This document shows positions 34,096 through 49,390 of a stretch of DNA of 64,000 bases, in pieces. Where the stretch lies: positions 3,328,001-3,392,000 of the forward strand of contig CM000153.2 in the NCBI GenBank assembly GCA_000004695.1, given 5' to 3'. Source of the DNA: Dictyostelium discoideum (lineage: Eukaryota). Below the pieces are notes generated by a model. That model made no database searches, had not been told where the DNA came from, and saw only the letters and a list, made by a program, of their open reading frames with translations. Made by a program: the position numbers and the translations under genes. How positions within the stretch are numbered: position 1 is the first letter of the stretch; every line of letters begins with the position of its first letter.

Positions 34096-36252
34096 ATGAT
34101 TAATTCACTACATATTTTTAAAAAAAGTTTTTTAAATTCAACAGCAATACAAACTTCAACAACTAGATTATTTAATTTAGAACAACAATATAAACAACAA
34201 TTACCAATTTATTCATATTTTTATAATAACTTTTTTACAAGAAAAGAATCTAAAAAAAAAAATGATCAACAATTTAAAAAAAAGAATCCAAATGATAGAA
34301 ATAAAAGTTTAAGAAATAAAAGAGCACCAGCACCAAAAGAACAAACAATGAAAAAACATCGTAGAATTGAACAAGAGACAAAAATAAGAGAGGATAGAGA
34401 AAATAAATATGAAATTCAAAAAAAGAAAAGATCTGATAAATTAAAGAAAACTAATGAAGTTAGTTTTAAACATCTTGATTATAAATTAAATGAAGATGGT
34501 AAAGAGTTTAATATAAATAGTTTAGATAAATTTTTATCTCCACAATCAAAATCAAAATTAAAATCATCATCAAAATCATCAACTTCAAAATCATCACCAA
34601 AATCATCACCAAAATCATCACCAAAATCATTGAATTTCTTGGAAAATTTAGTTGGAACTAAAAAATCAAAAAAAGAAATTGAACAAGAAGAAATTTTAAA
34701 AAAATATGAACAAATGATGGAATCAAAAGATAAACCAATTTATACAGATTTTAATAGAATTAAATTTAGAGTTTCAAAAGATATGGAAGGTATGAGAGTT
34801 GATAAATGGATTAGTACAAAATTACCAGTTTTACCACATTCTTTAATTTGTCGTTGGTTAAGAAACAAAGCAATTTTCATGGAAAATGGTGAAGAGAAAA
34901 AAGTTGGTGAAGAAAATTATAAAAATGAGAAAGTAGAGGAGGAGGAAGAGAATAATGAGGAGGAGGAAGAAGAGGATGATGAAGAAGAAGAAAAAGAAGA
35001 GGAGGAAGAGGAAGAAGAAGAGTATGAAGAAGAAAAGGAAAAAGAAAAAGATGAAGAGGAAGAAGAAGAGTATGAAGAAGAATATGAAGAAGAAGAATAT
35101 GAAGAAGAAGAATATGAAGAAGAAGAATATGAAGAGGGAGAATATGAAGAGGAAGAAAATAAAAATTTAGATTTATCAAAAACTACAACAACAACAAAAG
35201 AAAATAAAGTAAACCCTGTTCAACTTAAAAGACATAAATTAAAATTTAATGATAAAGTTCAAGTTGGTAGTTGGATTTATTTCCCAGCTCAAGTAATATT
35301 AGATCAACAGATTGCAGATATTAAAGATCCACAAAAATATGCAAGATTAAGTGATCAAGAAATTAAAGAAATCAGAGAAAGTGTTTTATATAAAGACGAA
35401 CATATTATAGTATTAAATAAACCACAAGGTTTATCAGTTCAAGGTGGTACAGGTTTAAATAAACATTTAGATATGATGTTGAGTCATTTACGTTTTGAAA
35501 AGGATGAAAATCCAAAATTAGTTCATCGTTTAGATAGGAATACTTCTGGTATCTTAATTTTAGGTAGATCAAAATTGGCTGCAAGTGCAATGACTAAAAA
35601 ATTTGAATTAAAATTAGTAAAAGAAAATAAAAAAGATAAAGATGATAATAATAATAATAAAAATAATAAAAATAATAATAAAAATGATAGTAAAAGATTA
35701 TTTAGAGAAAAAGAAGTTTTTAATAATAACAAAAATAAAGATGAAGAAAATGAAAATTATAGTAAAGGTATTAAAAAAACATATTGGGCATTATTAGGTT
35801 CAACACCAACACCAAAAGAAGGTAGAATTAGAGCACCATTGAAAAAGGTGGTTGTTGGTGGTTTTGAAAAGGTTGTACCAACTTTAACAACTGGTGATGG
35901 TGCAAAAATTGCAATCACTGAATACAAAGTATTGGAATCATCTTTAACTAAACATTGTTTTATTTCATTATGGCCTGAAACAGGTCGTACTCATCAATTA
36001 AGAGTACATTGTGCTTCAGTTTTAAATACTCCAATCATTGGTGACCCAAAATATGGTGATAAAGAATCTGATTCAAATTTAAAAGATCTTTTACCATATC
36101 CTTCAAAATTACATTTACATGCAAGAAGAATTGAATTCATTCATCCATTCACAAATAAGAAAATTGATATCTCTGCTCCATTACCAAGAGAATTGGTTCA
36201 AAATTGGAAAACAATGGGTTTTAATTATAAATTTGATGATAAATCAATTTAA
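34096..36252 (+). CDS. RluA-family RNA pseudouridine synthase with S4-like region and a large acidic insertion, 718 aa
   Basis: Catalytic motif HRLDRNTSGILILGRSK (RluA HRLDxxTSG) with the Asp nucleophile. Downstream are GRTHQLRVHCASVLNTPIIGDPKYG and LHLHARRIEFIHPFTNK. An S4-like region (RVDKWISTKLPVL) precedes a ~95-aa E/Y/K-rich insertion (34900..35165). N-terminal KSSPKSSPKSSPKS repeats are also present. Confidence 0.8.
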   Translation: MINSLHIFKKSFLNSTAIQTSTTRLFNLEQQYKQQLPIYSYFYNNFFTRKESKKKNDQQFKKKNPNDRNKSLRNKRAPAPKEQTMKKHRRIEQETKIREDRENKYEIQKKKRSDKLKKTNEVSFKHLDYKLNEDGKEFNINSLDKFLSPQSKSKLKSSSKSSTSKSSPKSSPKSSPKSLNFLENLVGTKKSKKEIEQEEILKKYEQMMESKDKPIYTDFNRIKFRVSKDMEGMRVDKWISTKLPVLPHSLICRWLRNKAIFMENGEEKKVGEENYKNEKVEEEEENNEEEEEEDDEEEEKEEEEEEEEEYEEEKEKEKDEEEEEEYEEEYEEEEYEEEEYEEEEYEEGEYEEEENKNLDLSKTTTTTKENKVNPVQLKRHKLKFNDKVQVGSWIYFPAQVILDQQIADIKDPQKYARLSDQEIKEIRESVLYKDEHIIVLNKPQGLSVQGGTGLNKHLDMMLSHLRFEKDENPKLVHRLDRNTSGILILGRSKLAASAMTKKFELKLVKENKKDKDDNNNNKNNKNNNKNDSKRLFREKEVFNNNKNKDEENENYSKGIKKTYWALLGSTPTPKEGRIRAPLKKVVVGGFEKVVPTLTTGDGAKIAITEYKVLESSLTKHCFISLWPETGRTHQLRVHCASVLNTPIIGDPKYGDKESDSNLKDLLPYPSKLHLHARRIEFIHPFTNKKIDISAPLPRELVQNWKTMGFNYKFDDKSI

Positions 36253-38329: not shown

Positions 38330-39470
38330 TAAGACGCATGTTCGACTCCGTATTTAATCAATTATTAAAGCTCATCAATAATAATTGATTAAATAATTAT
38401 TAAAGCTCATCAATAATAACATAACACAGGCAAAGGGATAACAAGAAAAATGCCAGAATTATTAAACACAATAAGATCATCCTTAGTACTATGGAAAACC
38501 ACTGACTCAACAATCAAAACCAAAACCAACATCCTCAAAGCATTCGCACTCTCTAAATTAACCTACTATTCATATGTAGAGAACTTTAAGGAAGAGGAAT
38601 TAAACCAAATCAATAAATTAGTCGAATGGTTTTTATCGGCACCAAACAACAAAAATGCTAGTGGATTTCAAGTTATTAATTTAATGAGAACCAAAAGAGC
38701 AAGATACCCACTAAAAGTAGGGGGCTGGAACATTTGGAATATAGAATTGAGACAACTGGCGCAGAAACTTTGGATCATAAACCAGTTCATCCTAGCACTA
38801 GAAACCAAACAAACAAACTCATCTCATCACAAAAGCTGGGAATATCAGATCCAAAAAAACAAATTCACATCCAGATACCTAAAAGAAAACTTAGACGAAT
38901 GGAACAAAATAAGAATAAAAAAAGCAATCTTCAACAATAATCTCACATCCATAAAAAACGAAAATGGACAACCACTTTCACTGGCAGAATGGTATACCAC
39001 AATTCAAGACCAAAATCCAACCATCCCTAAAACGGAATTCCAATCATCTCTAAACTTAATTCATTGTACCACTGTGCAATCAAATATACAGTGAAGATCC
39101 TTTAACAAATGAATCACTATCATACAGCTCCCTTCTAAAGAAATGGCACAAATTGGCCACTCTAGAATACATCAAAAAAGCAAAAGATCTGAAAAACTTA
39201 TCAGCAAAAGACCATAATAATTTCAAAGATCCTAAGATCCTTCTCACCTCAACGATCAAGCTAAGAAAAACAACAGCTAATTACTATTGTATTCCAGAAT
39301 CATCTCTCCCAAATATTATATCTTTTGATCAATTCATATGATTAAAATAACCCTTCAGCTTAAATGATAAGCCTATAAATAAATATTAAATAAAAACTCG
39401 TATTAACACAGATGGACATATATCAATCTTGTTAATCCAATATTAAAAAAAAAAAAAAAAAAAAAAAAAC
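38330..39470 (+). mobile_element. 5'-truncated non-LTR (poly(A)) retrotransposon fragment downstream of a tRNA gene (TRE3-like): C-terminal ORF2 remnant + 3' UTR + A22 tail
   Basis: ORF 38450..39094 (214 aa) has normal amino-acid composition and moderate G+C, unlike the host's AT-rich coding bias. A further 3' region follows, then a poly(A) tract at 39446..39469. It begins about 100-140 bp downstream of the tRNA-Tyr 3' end. Dictyostelium TRE3-type elements characteristically sit about 100 bp downstream of tRNA genes. A short internal direct repeat (ttattaaagctcatcaataataa, x2) lies at 38367..38425. Confidence 0.55.
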
Positions 39471-39615: not shown

Positions 39616-42093
39616 ATGATGAATTCTGATCAAAAGTTAGATATAAATATATTATTTTGGAAGGTAATAAAAAATAAAGTTTTGTTCAAAAAAATATTGA
39701 AATATTTATCCTATGAATATAATGATGATGATATATCAAAACCATTATTTTCAGTACAGTGGTTAATAAATAATGGATACAGGAAAACTTTAAAACATAA
39801 AATAATGAATGATCATTACTTAGAATTTGATAAAAATTACTCTTCAAATGCCTTTGAAAATTACTCGTCAAATGTCTTTGAAAATTTTTTTTTATTCTTT
39901 AAAGATGAAACAGATGAAGAATTTTATAAAAATTTATTTTCAAGAAATTATTTTAAATCAATATTTCAATCTAAAAATATAACCAATATTAATAATAATA
40001 ATAATAATAAAAATTTTAATAATTTTTTTGAATCAATAATTAAAACAATTTTTGAAACGAATAATTTTATTGCAATAAAAGTATTAAATGAAGAATATTA
40101 TTATTTAACTTGTAAAGTAAAGTTTGGAATTTTAGATAATTATGAAATTTTAAATTGGTTATTGAAAACCTATGGAAAAACATATATTTTAGAGTATATA
40201 AAAAACAATATTAATAATGATATTGAAGAACCTTTACAAGTTTTTATAAATTCAATCTCTTCAAATATATATTTAGCAAACCCAAAATCATCAGAGAGTT
40301 TAGAATCAATAATTGATTTATTTAAATTATTAACAGAGGATTTGAACATTGAAATACCAAATTGCAGTAAGCAAAGGATTCTTTCAATTATTTTACAAAT
40401 TTGTCCAATCAATAATAATTATGCCATTAGACTTATTTTAAAATTATTTAAATTTATTAGAATGTTTCGTGATTCCAAACCATTTAATAAACAACTTTCA
40501 ATTATTGAATCAATTGAATTTTCAAAAGAACAGTTGGATATGAGACTTTTGGATTTTATACATAATGATCAAAAGCAAAAGCAAATGTTTAAAACATTAA
40601 TTAAAAGTTACTATGAAAATGTTTTTTCAAATGGATTTAGTTTTTTATATTATTACATTTATGAAAGTATTGAATTATTTAAATCAAGTCAAATTATAAA
40701 TAATAATCATTCAATAAATCCGAAATATTATACATTCACTTCATTCGAGTATGGAGATATTGAATTATTTAAATTCACTTTTAATTCTCTTTCAATTGAT
40801 GATCGTAATTATTTAATGAATGGTACACAACAATTACTTCTTAATGGTAAAATAATATTTTTTAAATATTCCAATGATAAATCAATGAATGAAAAAATGA
40901 AATTTATTAATCAAGTAACTATGGAAATTAATAATTCAAAAAGCAAACGTAGTTTTTTAGAAAAAACTGATAAAATTGAATTTTTAATTTATTTATTTAC
41001 ATATTTAATAAAAATAAATGAAATTGAATTATTAAATGTAATTATTAAAGATTGTAATTTCAATCCATACTCAAAATCATTTAAAGTATCCAAATCAGAT
41101 TATTTATACATTTGTAGATATATTAAATCAATATCAATGTTAGATTTTATTTATTTCAATTTTAAAGATATGGATAATTTAATTTGGGATTGTAAATCTT
41201 GGTGTAATGATAATAGATTCGATTTGATTGAACATTATTTAAATTTAAATTCAAAACATGTTTCTGGAGTCACCATGGTCAATTATGATATAAAAAATGA
41301 AACCAACCTTAAATTAAATAATAAATTAAATTCAATTTCAATAGAAATTAAAAACACAAATGATAATATTGGGTCAATGAAATATTTTATTGGAAAATAT
41401 AAAAATCAAAATTATAAATTATTATCATCACTACCAAAATTTAAAATTTATTTTCATTTTGATAAAAATGTTAATAGTACTATTTTTGATAATATAAATA
41501 ATTATAAATTTATAATTGAAAACAGTTTAAACTACAATTGTCGTCAATCATCTAAAAATGAAAATCAAGAAGCAAAAGAAGAAGAGGAAGAATTCTTAGA
41601 TCATGATCTATTTGATGATAATAGTGTTGATAATGATAATTTAGTTACAAACTATTGTTTTAAATGGAGTGGATTTATTCCATACCAATATGTTGAATTT
41701 ATAAAATGGATTTTAGAAAGTCGTCAAAATGATTTGAAATCAGGTCGTTTAATTATTTCAAGTCATCAATTAATTTCATTTAAATATTTAATTTATTTAC
41801 AAAGTAATGGTATTAAATATTTAAATGAAATTGATTCATTCATTTCTTCAACAACATCAAGTTCAGTAGAAAATTATTTATTTTTTTGTGCTTTTAATCA
41901 TTGTGATTTAAAAACAATAGATAAAATTATTAATAATTTAAAAAATTCAAATTTAGATATTCTCTCTTCATTATTTAATTACTCAACAATGTGTGGTCAA
42001 ATTAAAGTACTTAAACATTTATATAAAAATCATAAATTTCTTTTTGAAACATTTTCTTCAAAAAATTTCTTAAAACAATATAATTTGGAATAA
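39616..42093 (+). CDS. hypothetical protein, 825 aa, Asn/Ile/Lys-rich, no recognisable domain
   Basis: Long uninterrupted ORF with Dictyostelium-like codon and amino-acid bias and internal tandem copies (SSNAFENYSSNVFENF). I could assign no conserved motif. Confidence 0.55.
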   Translation: MMNSDQKLDINILFWKVIKNKVLFKKILKYLSYEYNDDDISKPLFSVQWLINNGYRKTLKHKIMNDHYLEFDKNYSSNAFENYSSNVFENFFLFFKDETDEEFYKNLFSRNYFKSIFQSKNITNINNNNNNKNFNNFFESIIKTIFETNNFIAIKVLNEEYYYLTCKVKFGILDNYEILNWLLKTYGKTYILEYIKNNINNDIEEPLQVFINSISSNIYLANPKSSESLESIIDLFKLLTEDLNIEIPNCSKQRILSIILQICPINNNYAIRLILKLFKFIRMFRDSKPFNKQLSIIESIEFSKEQLDMRLLDFIHNDQKQKQMFKTLIKSYYENVFSNGFSFLYYYIYESIELFKSSQIINNNHSINPKYYTFTSFEYGDIELFKFTFNSLSIDDRNYLMNGTQQLLLNGKIIFFKYSNDKSMNEKMKFINQVTMEINNSKSKRSFLEKTDKIEFLIYLFTYLIKINEIELLNVIIKDCNFNPYSKSFKVSKSDYLYICRYIKSISMLDFIYFNFKDMDNLIWDCKSWCNDNRFDLIEHYLNLNSKHVSGVTMVNYDIKNETNLKLNNKLNSISIEIKNTNDNIGSMKYFIGKYKNQNYKLLSSLPKFKIYFHFDKNVNSTIFDNINNYKFIIENSLNYNCRQSSKNENQEAKEEEEEFLDHDLFDDNSVDNDNLVTNYCFKWSGFIPYQYVEFIKWILESRQNDLKSGRLIISSHQLISFKYLIYLQSNGIKYLNEIDSFISSTTSSSVENYLFFCAFNHCDLKTIDKIINNLKNSNLDILSSLFNYSTMCGQIKVLKHLYKNHKFLFETFSSKNFLKQYNLE

Positions 42094-42279: not shown

Positions 42280-42789
42280 AAATTTGTAACATACACCTTC
42301 ATGAGATATTTTCCAATAATCATTTTTTATAATATACAATGGGGTATTATCTAATAAAGAATTTGTAAAAAAAAAAAAAAAAATTAAATTTAATTTTAAT
42401 TTAGGGGTTAAAATTAAAAGAATTAAAAAAAAATTAAAGAATAAAAAAAATCTAGATATTTGTATTAGTTTTATTGTTATGGCCCATTATAATTTGAATT
42501 AACAATTTTTATATATATTTATAAGGGAACTATTACCATTTCATTCAAAATTTTTTGATTTCAAAAAATATCTAATATATTAATTGAAATCATAAACATT
42601 TTTCAAAGATTTATATTATTTTCGTAAAAGAATAATAAAAAAAGGTTACAAATTCGAAAATAATGAATAATTTTAATTGGTTAAAAAAAAACTATAAATA
42701 GTTTTTTTTTTATTCAAATCATTCAAATCATTCAAATCAATCAAATATTTTAAATTATTTAATATTCTAAAAAAAAAAAAAAAAAGAAA

Positions 42790-43040
42790 ATGTCAATCTT
42801 TGGTAAATATTAAAAATTAAAAAAAAAAATTTTTAGTAATATTAATCTTACTATTTCATTTTTATTTCCTTAAAATTAGCCTCAATTGTTTCAATCTCAA
42901 AAGTTAACAACAAAAAGAATTCAACAGCAGTTGGTTCATCAGAAAATAAAATTCAATACTCAACAAGTCAAGTTTCTGGTGGTCTTGTAAGTGATTTACT
43001 CTGCGATATTGCTGTTACTTTGGATAAAGCTGGCCTCTAA
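42790..43040 (+). CDS. small protein (57 aa) paralog A; join(42790..42802,42880..43040)
   Basis: ATG TCA ATC TTT G|GTAAAT donor, then acceptor aaaattag|CC, joined in phase 1: MSIFASIVSISKVNNKKNSTAVGSSENKIQYSTSQVSGGLVSDLLCDIAVTLDKAGL*. The exon structure and protein are paralogous to 43635..43898. Confidence 0.55.
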
Positions 43041-43634
43041 ATTTGATTATATTAATCATAAACTCAAAACTTAAATAACATTACCAGTAACATTATTAAA
43101 TAAAATTACAATTTTAATTTAAAAAAAATTTGTTTCATTATATTTTTAATCTTTATTTTCTTTTATTATCAAATTAACATTTTTTTCAAAAAAAAATTTT
43201 ATTGGACGAGTTATCTGTTTTTTATTTATTTTTTTTTTTATTTGGTTTAAATTTTTTTTTTTTTTTTTATTATTTTGTAAAAAGAAAAAAAAAAGTAAAA
43301 TCTCTATGTCTTTTTATTTTTGAAATGTTATAAATTAATTTGTTTGTAAAATTGTTATTGGGTGATTTTTTTAATTAAAATAAATGTAAAAAAATTAAAA
43401 TCTATTGATTTTTATCTTCAAGATTTAATAAACATACAATAAATAACAAATCAATATAAATTACCAACATTTATTTGATTTCCAACTTTTTTACAAGCCT
43501 AATTTATTACATTGATTGACTAAGAAAAAAAAAAAAAAAGTGTATAAATATTGAAATAAATTAATTTCAAAATTCATTAAATTAAAAAAGAACAATAACC
43601 TTTAATTCTATAAAAAAAAAAAAAAACTAAAAAA

Positions 43635-43898
43635 ATGTCAATCATTGGTAACTATTTTAAATATTATTTATTATTTAAAGCCTTCATTTAAATAGAGATG
43701 ATATTAATATTATTTTAAAATGAAAATATAGCATCAATTACCTCAATCTCAAAAGTTTCATCAAAAAACATTCCATCAAGTTCAAACTTACCAACATCAA
43801 CTAACAAAATTCAATTTGGAAATAATCAAGTTTCTGGTGGTCTTGTTAGCGATTTGGTTTGTAATATTGCCACTGCTGTTGAAAAACTTGGTCTTTAA
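43635..43898 (+). CDS. small protein (59 aa) paralog B; join(43635..43647,43732..43898)
   Basis: ATG TCA ATC ATT G|GTAACT donor, then acceptor aaatatag|CA, joined in phase 1: MSIIASITSISKVSSKNIPSSSNLPTSTNKIQFGNNQVSGGLVSDLVCNIATAVEKLGL*. It shares MSI(F/I)ASI.SISKV and the C-terminal motif QVSGGLVSDL.C.IA with paralog A. Confidence 0.55.
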
Positions 43899-44093
43899 AT
43901 TTATTATTTAAGGTTAAGACTAAAAACAAAAAAAACAAACTCTATCATTACTATTATCAATAAAAACTTACCATTACTATTCCTATCTTTATTTTAAAAA
44001 AAAAAAAAAAAAAAAACTTTCTTATAATTTTTATTTACAATGGTTATTATTATTATTATTATTATCATAATTTATTGGGGGAGGGGGTAGAAT

Positions 44094-44287
44094 TTATGTT
44101 GCAGTAGTTGTTGTTGTAGTAGTTGTTGTTGAGGTAGTATTAGTAATTGGTGAAGCTGCTTCTGAATTTGTTGGGTTAAAAACATCGATATAATACGCAG
44201 ATGGTTTTGAATATAAATTATTAATTTCAAAAGATATGAGTTCAATTTCTTTATTATAATTATTTTAATTATCAATATTAGTAAGGT

Positions 44288-44324
<37 letters not shown>

Positions 44325-45198
44325 TAATTGATTATGTACATACCCTCTTTAGTTGTGTCAAATAATTCCCACCAAGGATAAGGTTCTTCAGGTAATTGTG
44401 TACCTAATATTCTTGATGCTAAAAATATAGAAGAAGCTGCAATTGATTCAGGTTTATATTGAATTGTAATAGTGGTTCTCATTGAATCATTTAAATAATT
44501 CCATGATTTTTGAGCCAATTCTTTACTTCTTTCTAACAGTTTCATATAATTTAAAATATATTTATGTGGTAAATCAACGTACATTAAAAATCCAAACTCT
44601 TTTAAAATATCAAATTCTGCTGCAATAACATCACCTTTTAAATCCCAATATGCCTATAATAATGATGATAATTTTTGTGTTTTTTTATTAATAAACAACA
44701 TAACTATTGATGATATTATTATTATCATTTACGTACCTGTTTAGTTGTATCAATATAGTCTATTGGTAAACCTTCTTTTTTTTGCCAAATTAAGGTGAAA
44801 ACATTTAATATATCTCTAATCTTTCTTTGTGGTTCTGTAAACTTAGTAGAGACAAAGAGTGATCCCATTGCTAACGTTTTTACATCATATTCTTTTAATG
44901 ATTTTCTACAATAAAATCTTTGAAATATAACCTGTCCTGTAACTGTTGTTGCTTGTGGTCTGGTGTATAGGAAAATAAAAGATAATGAATAAATGAATAA
45001 AACGAAAAAAAAAAAAAAAAAAAAAAGTTGAAATAAATTTATATGAAATTTGATTTGATCTTACAATTCCAATAATATACCAGCTTCTTGAATTACCTCT
45101 GTTCCATATCTTCTTAAATTATCTTCAATTTCAAATGATATTCCATCCTTTCTTGATGGTGAATTTTGAATTTCTTCATCACTAAAATACAAGTTCAT
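44094..45198 (-). CDS. cyclin L-type cyclin (~273 aa, no RS tail); join(complement: 45065..45198, 44737..44959, 44344..44653, 44094..44248)
   Basis: Exon 1 (MNLYFSDEEIQNSPSRKDGISFEIEDNLRRYGTEVIQEAGILLE) aligns with CCNL1 ([36 protein letters not shown]). Exon 2 (PQATTVTGQVIFQRFYCRKSL...EPQRKIRDILNVF) aligns with PQVAMATGQVLFHRFFYSKSF...EAPRRIRDVINVF. Exon 3 (LAQKSWNYLNDSMRTTITIQYKPESIAASSIFLASRILGTQLP) aligns with [43 protein letters not shown]. Exon 4 is EEIELISFEINNLYSKPS...*. Donors are GTAAGA, GTACGT and GTATGT, and the phases are 2, 0 and 1. Confidence 0.75.
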
Positions 45199-45206
45199 AA
45201 CTTTTA

Positions 45207-45703: not shown

Positions 45704-47482
45704 ATGAAAATATTAAAAATATTATTATTAATAATACTATTATCATCAATTGATAGTTGTATTTCAATATCAAGTAAAAATGTTAAAAGAAGATTATTTA
45801 ATAATGAAGAGGATATAGTATCTACAAAAGATGGATTAATTAGGGGAATTGTTGTTAAAGATCATCGTGTATTCTATGGTATTCCTTTTGCTCGTCCACC
45901 AATTGATGAATTACGTTTTGAAGATCCAATTTTTCCAAGAGTTTGGAAAAATGTAAAAGATTGTACAAGACAAAAGGAACAATGTATTCAAAACTGTAGA
46001 TTGGGTAATGGAGCATGTTCTCAAGTTGGAACTAGTGAAGATTGTCTTTATTTAGATGTTTTTGTTCCAAGAAAATCAGATATTACAAATTCTTCTTTAA
46101 TTCCAGTTTTAGTTGTTATTCCTGGTTTGTATTTTTAAAATTTAATAAAATAAAAAAAAATAAAAAAATAAATAATATTAATTTTTTTTATTTATATATA
46201 TTAAGGTGGAGCATTTGTACAAGGTACTGGATCATGTTTACTTTATGATGCAAGTAAATTTGCAAATTCATCAATTATTGTTGTAAATATAAATTATAGA
46301 CTTGGAGCATTAGGTTTTTTGGGAACTGATTTATTAAGTGGTAATTTCGGGTTCTTAGATCAAGTTATGGCTTTACAATGGGTAAGATCAAATATTGAAG
46401 CATTTGGTGGTGATAAGAATAAAGTGACCATTTTTGGAGAATCTGCTGGTGCATTATCTGTGATATCTCATTTAGTTAGCGAACGTTCAAAGAATTTATT
46501 CCAACGTGCAATTGTATCATCGGCAACCTTTACACTTGGTTTAAAAACTAAATCACAGATTAGAGGTATTTCAAATGGTTTCACAAGTAAAATTGGTTGT
46601 AATATTGAAGATATTGATTGTTTACGTTCAAAGTCACCAGAAGAGATTTTAAAAGCACAAGATCAAGTTGCAAATGTATTCAGGGGGAAGCTATTAGATA
46701 TTGTAACAGTTTGGACACCAGTTGTAGATTGTGATATTATATTAGGTCAACCGTTAACAATGATTAGAGATGGTATTTTAGTTAATAATGTCCCATTGAT
46801 AATTGGTGAAACTAAAGATGAGGGTAATTTATTTGTATATTTTAATTTCCAAAAAAAGATCACACAACATAAATATAGAAATATGATTTCCCTAATGTTT
46901 GGCTCAAATAGTCAAATGGTTTTAAATAAATACCCCGCTCCGACAAGTGATGATGGTGATAATAAAGGAGATTGTAGACCTATTTTATCGAAATTATATG
47001 GTGATTACGTTTTCCGTTGCCCAAATAGATATCTAATTAATAGATTATTAACTCAAAATAATAAATCATCATCATCATCATCACCTGTAATTTACCATTA
47101 TCAATTCAGACATTCATTATCAAGTGGTAATCCAATTCCTTATTGTAGTGGTATTGTTTGTCATGGTTCTGAATTACCTTTAATTTTTAATACATATGAA
47201 TCTGCAATGAATTTTGAATTGGATGATGATGAAATTCAATTCTCTCAAGATATTAATAGATATTGGGTAAATTTCATTTCAAATGGTGACCCAAACAAAG
47301 GTTTATCCTCATCAACTATGATAGATTGGTCACCAATTACAAAATCTTTAAATAACTCTTTAATTATGGTACCAGAATTTCAATTAAATGATATTATCTC
47401 CATTGATGGAAGATGTAATTTATTTGATAAAATTTCATATAGAGGTTATACTAAAAAAAATTCAAAACTTTGTCCAAGTTAA
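45704..47482 (+). CDS. type-B carboxylesterase/lipase (cholinesterase-like), secreted, ~565 aa; join(45704..46124,46206..47482)
   Basis: A signal peptide is followed by EDCLYLDVFVP and the active-site Ser motif FGESAGA. The catalytic His is also present (GIVCHGSELPLIF). Exon 1 ends VLVVIPG at a GTTTGT donor, and acceptor tatattaag|GT joins in phase 1 to give ..IPGGAFVQGTGS. It is paralogous to the convergent gene at 47645..49390. Confidence 0.75.
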
Positions 47483-47644: not shown

Positions 47645-49390
47645 TTATTTTTTACTCTTTCTCATTCTATTTTGATCTTTAGTATAACCATTATAAGATA
47701 GTGAATCGAATAAATCACATTTTGGATCATTGGTAATAAGATCTTTAACTTCGAAACCAAGTTTCATAACTAAAGAGGTATTGGTAGTTTTAGTGGTTGG
47801 ATTCCAAACTTTTGGAGTTGGTAAACCATTAGGATGACTTGGATTAGAGTATTTAATGAAATTAACGAAATAATTATTTAATTGTTCAGCAAATTCTTCT
47901 TCTTCCTCTTCTAAATCTAAATCAAGTGCACTTTCATATGTATTGAAAACCATTGGTAATTCAGTACCATGACAAACTAAACCTTCACATGCTTCAAATG
48001 AATGACCTCCTGATAATACTTGTTTGTATTGGTAATGGTAAATTGGTGATTCATTGGCTTGAGCTGATTTTGAGACATGGTATCTACCTGGACAACGGAA
48101 GAGGTAATCGGTGAGTAATTTAGATAATATTGGTCTACTATCTTTTAAGAAACCTGGTAATGGATAATGCTCTAAAACTTTATTACCATTTGCAATACCG
48201 AATAAAACATGTACCATGGTTCTATAGGAACTTGGAATCACAACATTTTTATACGTCATGTAAACAAAGAGTATAGCCTCATCTTGGTTATCACCAATAA
48301 TGGTTGGAACATCATGAGTTGTACCTTGTTTTATCATTGTCAATGGTTGTTCATTTACATTAATTCCGTCGACCACTGGTGACCAGATTGTAAAAGCATC
48401 AAGAATCTTATCACCAATAGCCAAACCAAGTTCCTTTTGAATTGCTAAAATCTCCTCTGGTGATTTTGAACGATGGCAATCGATATCTTCAAGATCACAA
48501 CCAATCTTACTTGAGAAACGACCTGCAAATCCTCTTGCAACAGTTTGACTCTTCAAACCAACAGTATATGGTGTAGAAGAAAGAATTGCACGATGGAATT
48601 TACCTTCAGATTTTTCACTAGACAAATGAGCAGCAACTGAAAATGCACCTGCAGATTCACCATAAATTGTAACTTGATTCTTATCACCACCAAATACTTC
48701 AATATTTTCTTGAACCCAATCTAAAGCCATAACTTGATCTAAGAAACCAAAATTACCACTTAATAAACCAGTACATAAGAAACCTAATACACCAAGACGA
48801 TAGTTTACATTTACAACAATAACTGATGAATTTGCAAATTTAAGACCATCATAAAGTGGACATGAACCAGTACCTTGTGTAAATGCACCACCTAAAAAAT
48901 ATTTAAATAAAAAAATAAAATTTCAATTAATATTTGAAAAAATAATAATAAAAATAATAATAATAATAATTTATAAAAACATACCTGGAATAAAAACCAT
49001 TACTGGTACTTTTGAACCTGGATTAACTGTTCTTGGAATGAATACATCTAAATAAAGACAATCTTCACTTGTACCAACTTCAGAACAACTTCCTTTACCT
49101 AATTTACAATCTTGAATACATTGGTCTCTTTGTTTAGTACCATCTCTAACATAGGACCATGGCTTTGGTGGTTGTGGATCTTCATAACGTAATTCGTCAA
49201 TTGGTGGACGGGCAAACGGAATACCGTAAAATACACGATGAGTATCGGTTACTGTACCTCTAATAGCACCATCGGATAATAAAACTTCATTATCACCTAA
49301 AGTTCTAATACCTTTTCTACCAAATTTTTTAGCTGCTGATATAATATCAAATGATAATAAAATAATTAATAAAATTATTATTTTATTCAT
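47645..49390 (-). CDS. type-B carboxylesterase/lipase paralog, ~550 aa; join(complement: 48985..49390, 47645..48891)
   Basis: It is about 55-60% identical to 45704..47482 (EDCLYLDVFIP, YGESAGAFSVAAHL, GLVCHGTELPMVF). Its single intron (GTATGT donor, phase 1, ..VFIPG|GAFTQGTGS) sits at the same position as the intron of the plus-strand paralog. Confidence 0.75.

Follow-up and report, generated by a model that had tools for sequence, protein, structure and literature searches.

The window analysed here, a 64,000-nucleotide stretch of Dictyostelium discoideum DNA with ~22% G+C, a base composition typical of Dictyostelium, contains two micro-genes on the same strand with an ATG-to-ATG spacing of 845 bp (Table 1). 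Each is its own small transcription unit, with a TATA box, a first exon that holds a 13-nt ORF, a single phase-1 intron and a second exon. Gene 1 encodes a protein of 57 aa, MSIFASIVSISKVNNKKNSTAVGSSENKIQYSTSQVSGGLVSDLLCDIAVTLDKAGL, and gene 2 a protein of 59 aa, MSIIASITSISKVSSKNIPSSSNLPTSTNKIQFGNNQVSGGLVSDLVCNIATAVEKLGL. The two proteins are 60% identical; the first 13 and last 23 residues are near-identical and are joined by a variable Ser/Asn/Thr/Lys linker. A preliminary description of this DNA had proposed two same-strand genes 845 bp apart, each with a 13-nt first exon and a second exon, and these coordinates were confirmed. It had also described the introns as ~77–84 nt long and AT-only. 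The lengths were accurate, whereas the composition is AT-rich, as both introns contain some G/C (Table 1). In the TATA-to-ATG stretch of gene 1, a short tandem motif (CAAATCATT/CAAATCAAT) is present in ~4 copies at positions 42709–42746. Gene 2 has no equivalent of this motif, and the D. firmibasis and D. citrinum copies described below carry similar 'AAATCAA' runs 5′ of the ATG.

Table 1. Coordinates of the two window genes and of related copies at the D. firmibasis (L001) and D. citrinum (L002) loci
Feature	Position	Strand	Description
Gene 1 TATAAAT box	42693..42699	+	97 nt 5′ of ATG, followed by a T-run
Gene 1 (DDB_G0285549) exon 1	42790..42802	+	13-nt ORF ATGTCAATCTTTG, encoding M S I F and the first base of Ala5
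Gene 1 intron	42803..42879	+	77 nt, phase 1, GTAAAT...TTAG, G/C 8/77
Gene 1 exon 2	42880..43040	+	TAA stop included
Gene 1 C-terminal conserved block	42969..43037	+	QVSGGLVSDLLCDIAVTLDKAGL; coordinates from TBLASTN
Gene 2 TATAAAT box	43543..43549	+	92 nt 5′ of ATG
Gene 2 (DDB_G0285551) exon 1	43635..43647	+	13-nt ORF ATGTCAATCATTG
Gene 2 intron	43648..43731	+	84 nt, phase 1, GTAACT...ATAG, G/C 11/84
Gene 2 exon 2	43732..43898	+	TAA stop included
Gene 2 C-terminal conserved block	43827..43895	+	QVSGGLVSDLVCNIATAVEKLGL
D. firmibasis second copy	L001 9053-9307	-	exon ATGTCTCTCTTTG at 9307-9295, 87-nt intron, 56-aa ORF
D. citrinum unannotated partner of ACTFIV_011054	L002 9060-9304	-	13-nt exon, 74-nt intron, 57-aa MSLFASISSISKANTIKSNLINDNKTIVAQFTENKVQSGLVSGLLFDVSTTLENAGL

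Both products are already represented in sequence databases. The gene 1 product is 100% identical over its full length to DDB_G0285549 (XP_638119.1, Q54N24) of D. discoideum AX4, and the gene 2 product is likewise 100% identical, full length, to DDB_G0285551 (XP_638120.1, Q54N23) of the same strain. The two entries lie on the 5.45-Mb chromosome (chromosome 4). The spliced models are therefore already part of the reference annotation, and the splicing and paralogy proposed in the preliminary description were correct. Both entries are listed as 'hypothetical protein', with no name or family assignment. A full-text literature search by gene IDs and UniProt accessions returned no mention of either gene.

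Relatives of the pair were recovered by profile searches. Single-sequence word-index searches returned the query itself alone and missed the 60%-identical neighbour. An exhaustive profile search against 1.84 billion representatives recovered P0002 and one D. firmibasis protein only, and a profile built from four sequences added the 56-aa DDB_G0282399 from D. discoideum chromosome 3, a 58-aa protein of D. citrinum and a 30-aa D. firmibasis fragment. Searches with the clade profile recover these proteins alone. In an exact-product look-up among assembled contigs, none was found carrying P0001, P0002 or P0004. A head-to-head micro-gene pair is present in D. firmibasis (L001, CM069765.1) and another in D. 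citrinum (L002, JBTAPL010000072.1). In every copy the first exon is ATGTCTCTCTTTG, the donor is GTAAAT, the intron is 74–87 nt long and the ORF of 56–58 aa is intact. The D. firmibasis pair corresponds to RB653_006349 and the mis-modelled RB653_006365 (P0006), the second copy being annotated merely as a 30-aa protein that starts at an internal Met. Counted across three group-4 Dictyostelium species, the clade has at least seven genes.

The seven-sequence alignment contains 19 invariant columns. All seven members begin with MS(I/L)(F/I)ASIxSISK, and the clade C-terminus reads V-x-x-G-L-V-S-x-L-(L/V)-(C/F)-x-(I/L/V)-(A/S)-...-(K/N)-(A/L)-G-L-stop. DDB_G0282399 and the head-to-head pairs share with the window genes the 13-nt exon 1 and this N-terminus, a Ser/Asn/Lys linker that carries the motif (I/A)Q(F/Y) and, at the C-terminus, the predicted helix V-x-x-GLVSxL...(K/N)(A/L)GL, at 43–54% identity to the window proteins. 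They differ in reading KVQxGLVS where the window pair has QVSGGLVS, in having Phe instead of Cys and in their non-syntenic locus; the D. firmibasis and D. citrinum copies are also arranged head to head, whereas the window pair is in tandem. The single Cys, noted earlier as conserved, is indeed shared by the window pair, but it is Phe in five of five relatives, and the idea of a functionally conserved cysteine was rejected on this ground.

L001 and L002 are syntenic with each other and not with the window; when the window was compared with the D. firmibasis locus, the micro-genes alone matched. The D. firmibasis and D. citrinum proteins are 71–84% identical to DDB_G0282399, compared to 43–54% for the window pair. 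Because of this synteny and these identities, the copies at L001 and L002 are assigned as orthologues of the chromosome-3 gene and not of the window pair. Within these pairs, located at ~9.0–10.3 kb of the two loci, the copies of one species are 93% (DfA–DfB) and 84% (DcA–DcB) identical, compared to 71–80% across species. Since within-species copies are more alike than cross-species copies, their sequences suggest that the head-to-head genes undergo gene conversion or arose by independent duplications.

Judged from their sequences, the two window genes are tandemly duplicated protein-coding micro-genes. The window contains two instances of the exon-1-plus-donor pattern ATGWCNATHNTNGGTAA, compared to 0.01 expected from shuffles. 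Exon 2 of gene 1 and exon 2 of gene 2 are 69% identical at the DNA level (z = 8.9 versus shuffles), whereas the upstream DNA, intron and downstream DNA of the two genes display background similarity (z ≤ 1.0; intron, z = 1.0). In the C-terminal block of the pair, pS (0.49) exceeds pN (0.18). Among the six copies with DNA (window, D. firmibasis and D. citrinum), pN was lower than pS in 14 of 15 pairwise comparisons, and the intact ORF, GTAA donor and AG acceptor were present in all six. A TATAAAT element is located 63–97 nt 5′ of the ATG in each of these copies (window, L001 and L002). The substitution pattern marks the clade as being under purifying selection at the protein level.

The architecture of the window genes has a published precedent. 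A 13-nt first exon followed by a short intron is found in 89 of 96 sigN-related genes, with products of <120 aa, and groups of sigN genes occur clustered (Vicente et al. 2008, PMC2257962). The hssA genes likewise have a 13-nt first-exon ORF (Kin et al., PMC6198379). Printed primers give the first exons of the recognised family members DDB_G0275819 and DDB_G0281273 as ATGACAATCATTG and ATGGCAATTATTG, each followed by G (PMC8554618), and the first exon of gene 2 is one base off that of DDB_G0275819. The family meant here includes SigN1-25, HssA, 2C, 7E and SRCP1, with its size taken as ~96–100 genes, and the comparison to its core was made via the PF05710 profile, the intron position and published descriptions.

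PF05710 ('Coiled'), which we take to be the HssA/B-related family model, was the sole Pfam match of the window proteins, whose C-terminal half had no Pfam match. Positions 1–37 of the 90 in the model align to residues 1–38 with scores of 20.4 and 20.2 bits (E ~1e-3), ~1 bit under the gathering score of 21.4 bits, and positions 38–90 are unmatched by the window proteins. The D. firmibasis protein P0003 scored 24.7 bits, above this cut-off, and precomputed PF05710 matches exist for the clade members P0004 and P0005. All seven clade members match the model over the N-terminal ~37 residues (best E = 9.8e-6). When the N-terminal region was shuffled with its composition kept, 0 of 10 shuffles matched PF05710; it is thus the order of residues, and not a Ser-rich composition, that the match picks up.

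The window pair can be tied to the hssA/2C/7E–sigN–SRCP1 family through the position of its intron and its N-terminal signature. Shared features include the 13-nt first-exon ORF, one short intron (66–128 nt in the family) and a second exon; the N-terminal M-(S/T/A)-(I/L)-(F/I/L)-(G/A)-S-I-x-S-I, covered by PF05710 positions 1–37; and the small products (<120 aa), local clustering of genes (here as a tandem pair) and restriction to Dictyostelium. The C-terminal half sets the pair apart. In SigN and HssA proteins Ser, Gly and Cys abound, the C-terminal half being Gly/Cys-rich and containing, in SigN, a four-Cys 'knot' (PMC2257962). The window proteins have no such half, contain 4 Gly and 1 Cys each, in agreement with the earlier remark that they are not Gly/Cys-rich, and are shorter (57–59 aa versus mostly 75–100). 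They also have no place in the 96-gene sigN list (PMC2257962, Additional file 1), in which no gene from chromosome 4 combines a 57- or 59-aa product with an intron of ~77 or 84 nt. On these sequence features, the most fitting description of the window pair is a Gly/Cys-poor side branch, in which the family architecture and N-terminal module are combined with another C-terminal module. The same list contains sigN183, a chromosome-3 gene with a 56-aa product, whose first exon is given as 10 nt and whose intron as 85 nt; it may represent DDB_G0282399 in an earlier gene model.

The C-terminal module was modelled with AlphaFold2 on a 3-sequence alignment, which gave low confidence overall (mean pLDDT of 60.8). 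The one confident element is a helix at residues 38–55 (pLDDT ~77–83); the remainder is low, with pLDDT < 50 at residues 1–6. The helix carries a conserved hydrophobic stripe (V41, L44, L45, I48, L52 and A55) with a polar, acidic opposite face, and its helical hydrophobic moment of 0.26–0.44 is only moderate. In this model, the C-terminal module is a conserved, moderately amphipathic predicted helix of ~18 residues that ends in (A/L)GL. Most of each window protein would be disordered, and the helix may be the working part, acting through self-association or through binding of a partner or membrane. Within the family, the activity of SRCP1 resides in a short C-terminal self-associating segment. 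As compared by published description, SRCP1 resembles the window proteins in being small, Ser-rich, Dictyostelium-specific and of the same PANTHER/sigN class, with the C-terminal segment being the active one; it differs in its length (~88 aa) and in its 'pseudo-amyloid' C-terminus, where the window proteins have a predicted α-helix.

Expression of the closest paralogue gives a guide to when such proteins may act. Values for DDB_G0282399 at 0, 4, 8, 12, 16, 20 and 24 h are 0, 0, 0, 1.2, 284, 1413 and 556, and among mature cell types its expression is highest in stalk (Kin et al. supplement). Membership of the hssA/2C/7E family goes with induction during multicellular development, chiefly in prestalk, stalk or cup cells. 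By analogy, the window proteins would be made late in multicellular development, around culmination, although the DDB_G0282399 pattern may carry over poorly to a pair that is only ~50% identical to it. A CRISPR knockout of DDB_G0282399, handled as a member of the small-protein class, had no developmental phenotype (PMC8554618), and the deletion of 13 sigN genes likewise gave no phenotype. The window proteins may similarly be functionally redundant with their paralogues. The reading of the locus as annotated tandem micro-genes whose products combine the hssA/sigN N-terminal module with a different C-terminal predicted helix, and would act as late, redundant proteins, is considered likely.

A broader reading is that the hssA/sigN superfamily is modular, with a fixed cassette attached to unrelated C-terminal modules, and that the Cys-bearing chromosome-4 pair is an innovation of the D. 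discoideum lineage with its own function. We consider this rather unlikely as a whole. If it held, the cassette would run from the 13-nt exon 1 through the phase-1 intron to codon ~13 of exon 2 and might be kept for translation, stability, sorting or an RNA-level role; the attached C-termini would be a Gly/Cys-rich tail, a pseudo-amyloid segment or an amphipathic helix; and the chromosome-4 pair could act, for example, as a disulphide-linked dimer via Cys46.

It is unlikely that the products are secreted or membrane-anchored peptides that act outside the cell, with the hydrophobic Ser/Ile-rich N-terminus serving as signal peptide or anchor, as suggested in the preliminary description. Hydrophobicity is highest over the first 13 residues (mean Kyte–Doolittle of 1.2–1.6), and in the literature anti-SigN antibodies stained small vesicles and externally added antibody disaggregated mounds. 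However, the hydrophobic run is short and broken by Ser, the N-terminus has no basic n-region, and residues 1–6 are modelled with pLDDT < 50. Simple hydropathy measures make this end of the protein a weak signal-peptide candidate. Over 19-residue windows the maximum is 0.9–1.2, below the usual transmembrane thresholds, and a transmembrane protein was rejected on this basis. The family member SRCP1, moreover, is reported in the literature to work on cytosolic aggregates, including in human cells.

The preliminary description had suggested an undescribed small-protein family, and a stricter form of this view would treat the clade as independent, with its likeness to hssA/sigN being due to convergence or composition. 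In its favour, Pfam has no match for the C-terminal half, the PF05710 scores of the window proteins stay just short of the cut-off, the 96-gene list does not include them, and the dictyBase product field of DDB_G0282399 is blank, with no hssA/2C/7E label. Yet the clade and the family share both the small two-exon layout and the exact site of the intron (after nucleotide 13, phase 1), the profile match is in register from Met1 and is not reproduced by shuffles, and relatives of the pair pass Pfam's own cut-off. Independence is accordingly quite improbable, and the suggestion of an undescribed family did not hold: the 13-nt exon is the published sigN signature, the PF05710 match extends to 7/7 clade members and DDB_G0282399 has already been studied.

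A function at the RNA level, in which the functional entity would be the transcript itself, or the 5′ exon with the intron, and the ORF would be incidental, was proposed for hssA, for which frame-shifted constructs still suppressed the STATa phenotype (PMC6198379). The near-identity of first-exon DNA across distant family members would fit such a role. For the present clade it is very improbable, given that synonymous changes exceed non-synonymous ones, that seven copies in three species retain the ORF, stop position and terminal GL and that the intron and flanks are unconserved. The chance that these are a non-coding repeat or decayed pseudogenes, a reading that had been raised for the C-terminal block and for which no supporting point was found, is negligible: TBLASTN against the 64-kb window matched the block in these two copies only, and a dispersed non-coding repeat was rejected; conservation is limited to exons; each of the species retains intact ORFs and splice sites; and the paralogue DDB_G0282399 is strongly expressed.

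With the side-branch assignment retained, the finding is largely ordinary, because the genes are already annotated and belong to a side branch of the known hssA/2C/7E (sigN) family. The gene models stand in the reference annotation, and the closest paralogue has been knocked out without a phenotype. What is new is the classification, in which two hypothetical proteins are tied to the hssA/2C/7E–sigN–SRCP1 family and form, together with DDB_G0282399, a distinct Gly/Cys-poor clade with a predicted helical C-terminus. Redundancy has blocked functional analysis of the family, and the clade offers a cleaner target set for combined knockouts. The 13-nt exon also causes automated annotation to truncate or overlook these genes in related genomes.

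The surrounding genes were surveyed by Pfam matches. Just downstream of gene 2, a multi-exon gene at 44072–45200 (−) contains a cyclin-T2-like C-terminal domain (PF21797, E = 1.4e-7, ORF 44324–44584). Beyond it lie two convergent genes of the carboxylesterase family, at 45704–47482 (+) and 47645–49390 (−) (COesterase in Pfam, lowest E 1e-71). A single intron divides each of them, leaving ~140 aa in the N-terminal ORF and ~360–390 aa in the C-terminal one; the two look like paralogues. Upstream of the pair, a 214-aa ORF at 38450–39094 (+) and an 825-aa ORF at 39616–42093 (+) had no Pfam match at E ≤ 0.001, the latter being Asn-rich and uncharacterised. A 718-aa ORF at 34096–36252 (+) contains an RNA pseudouridylate synthase domain (PF00849, E = 4e-25).
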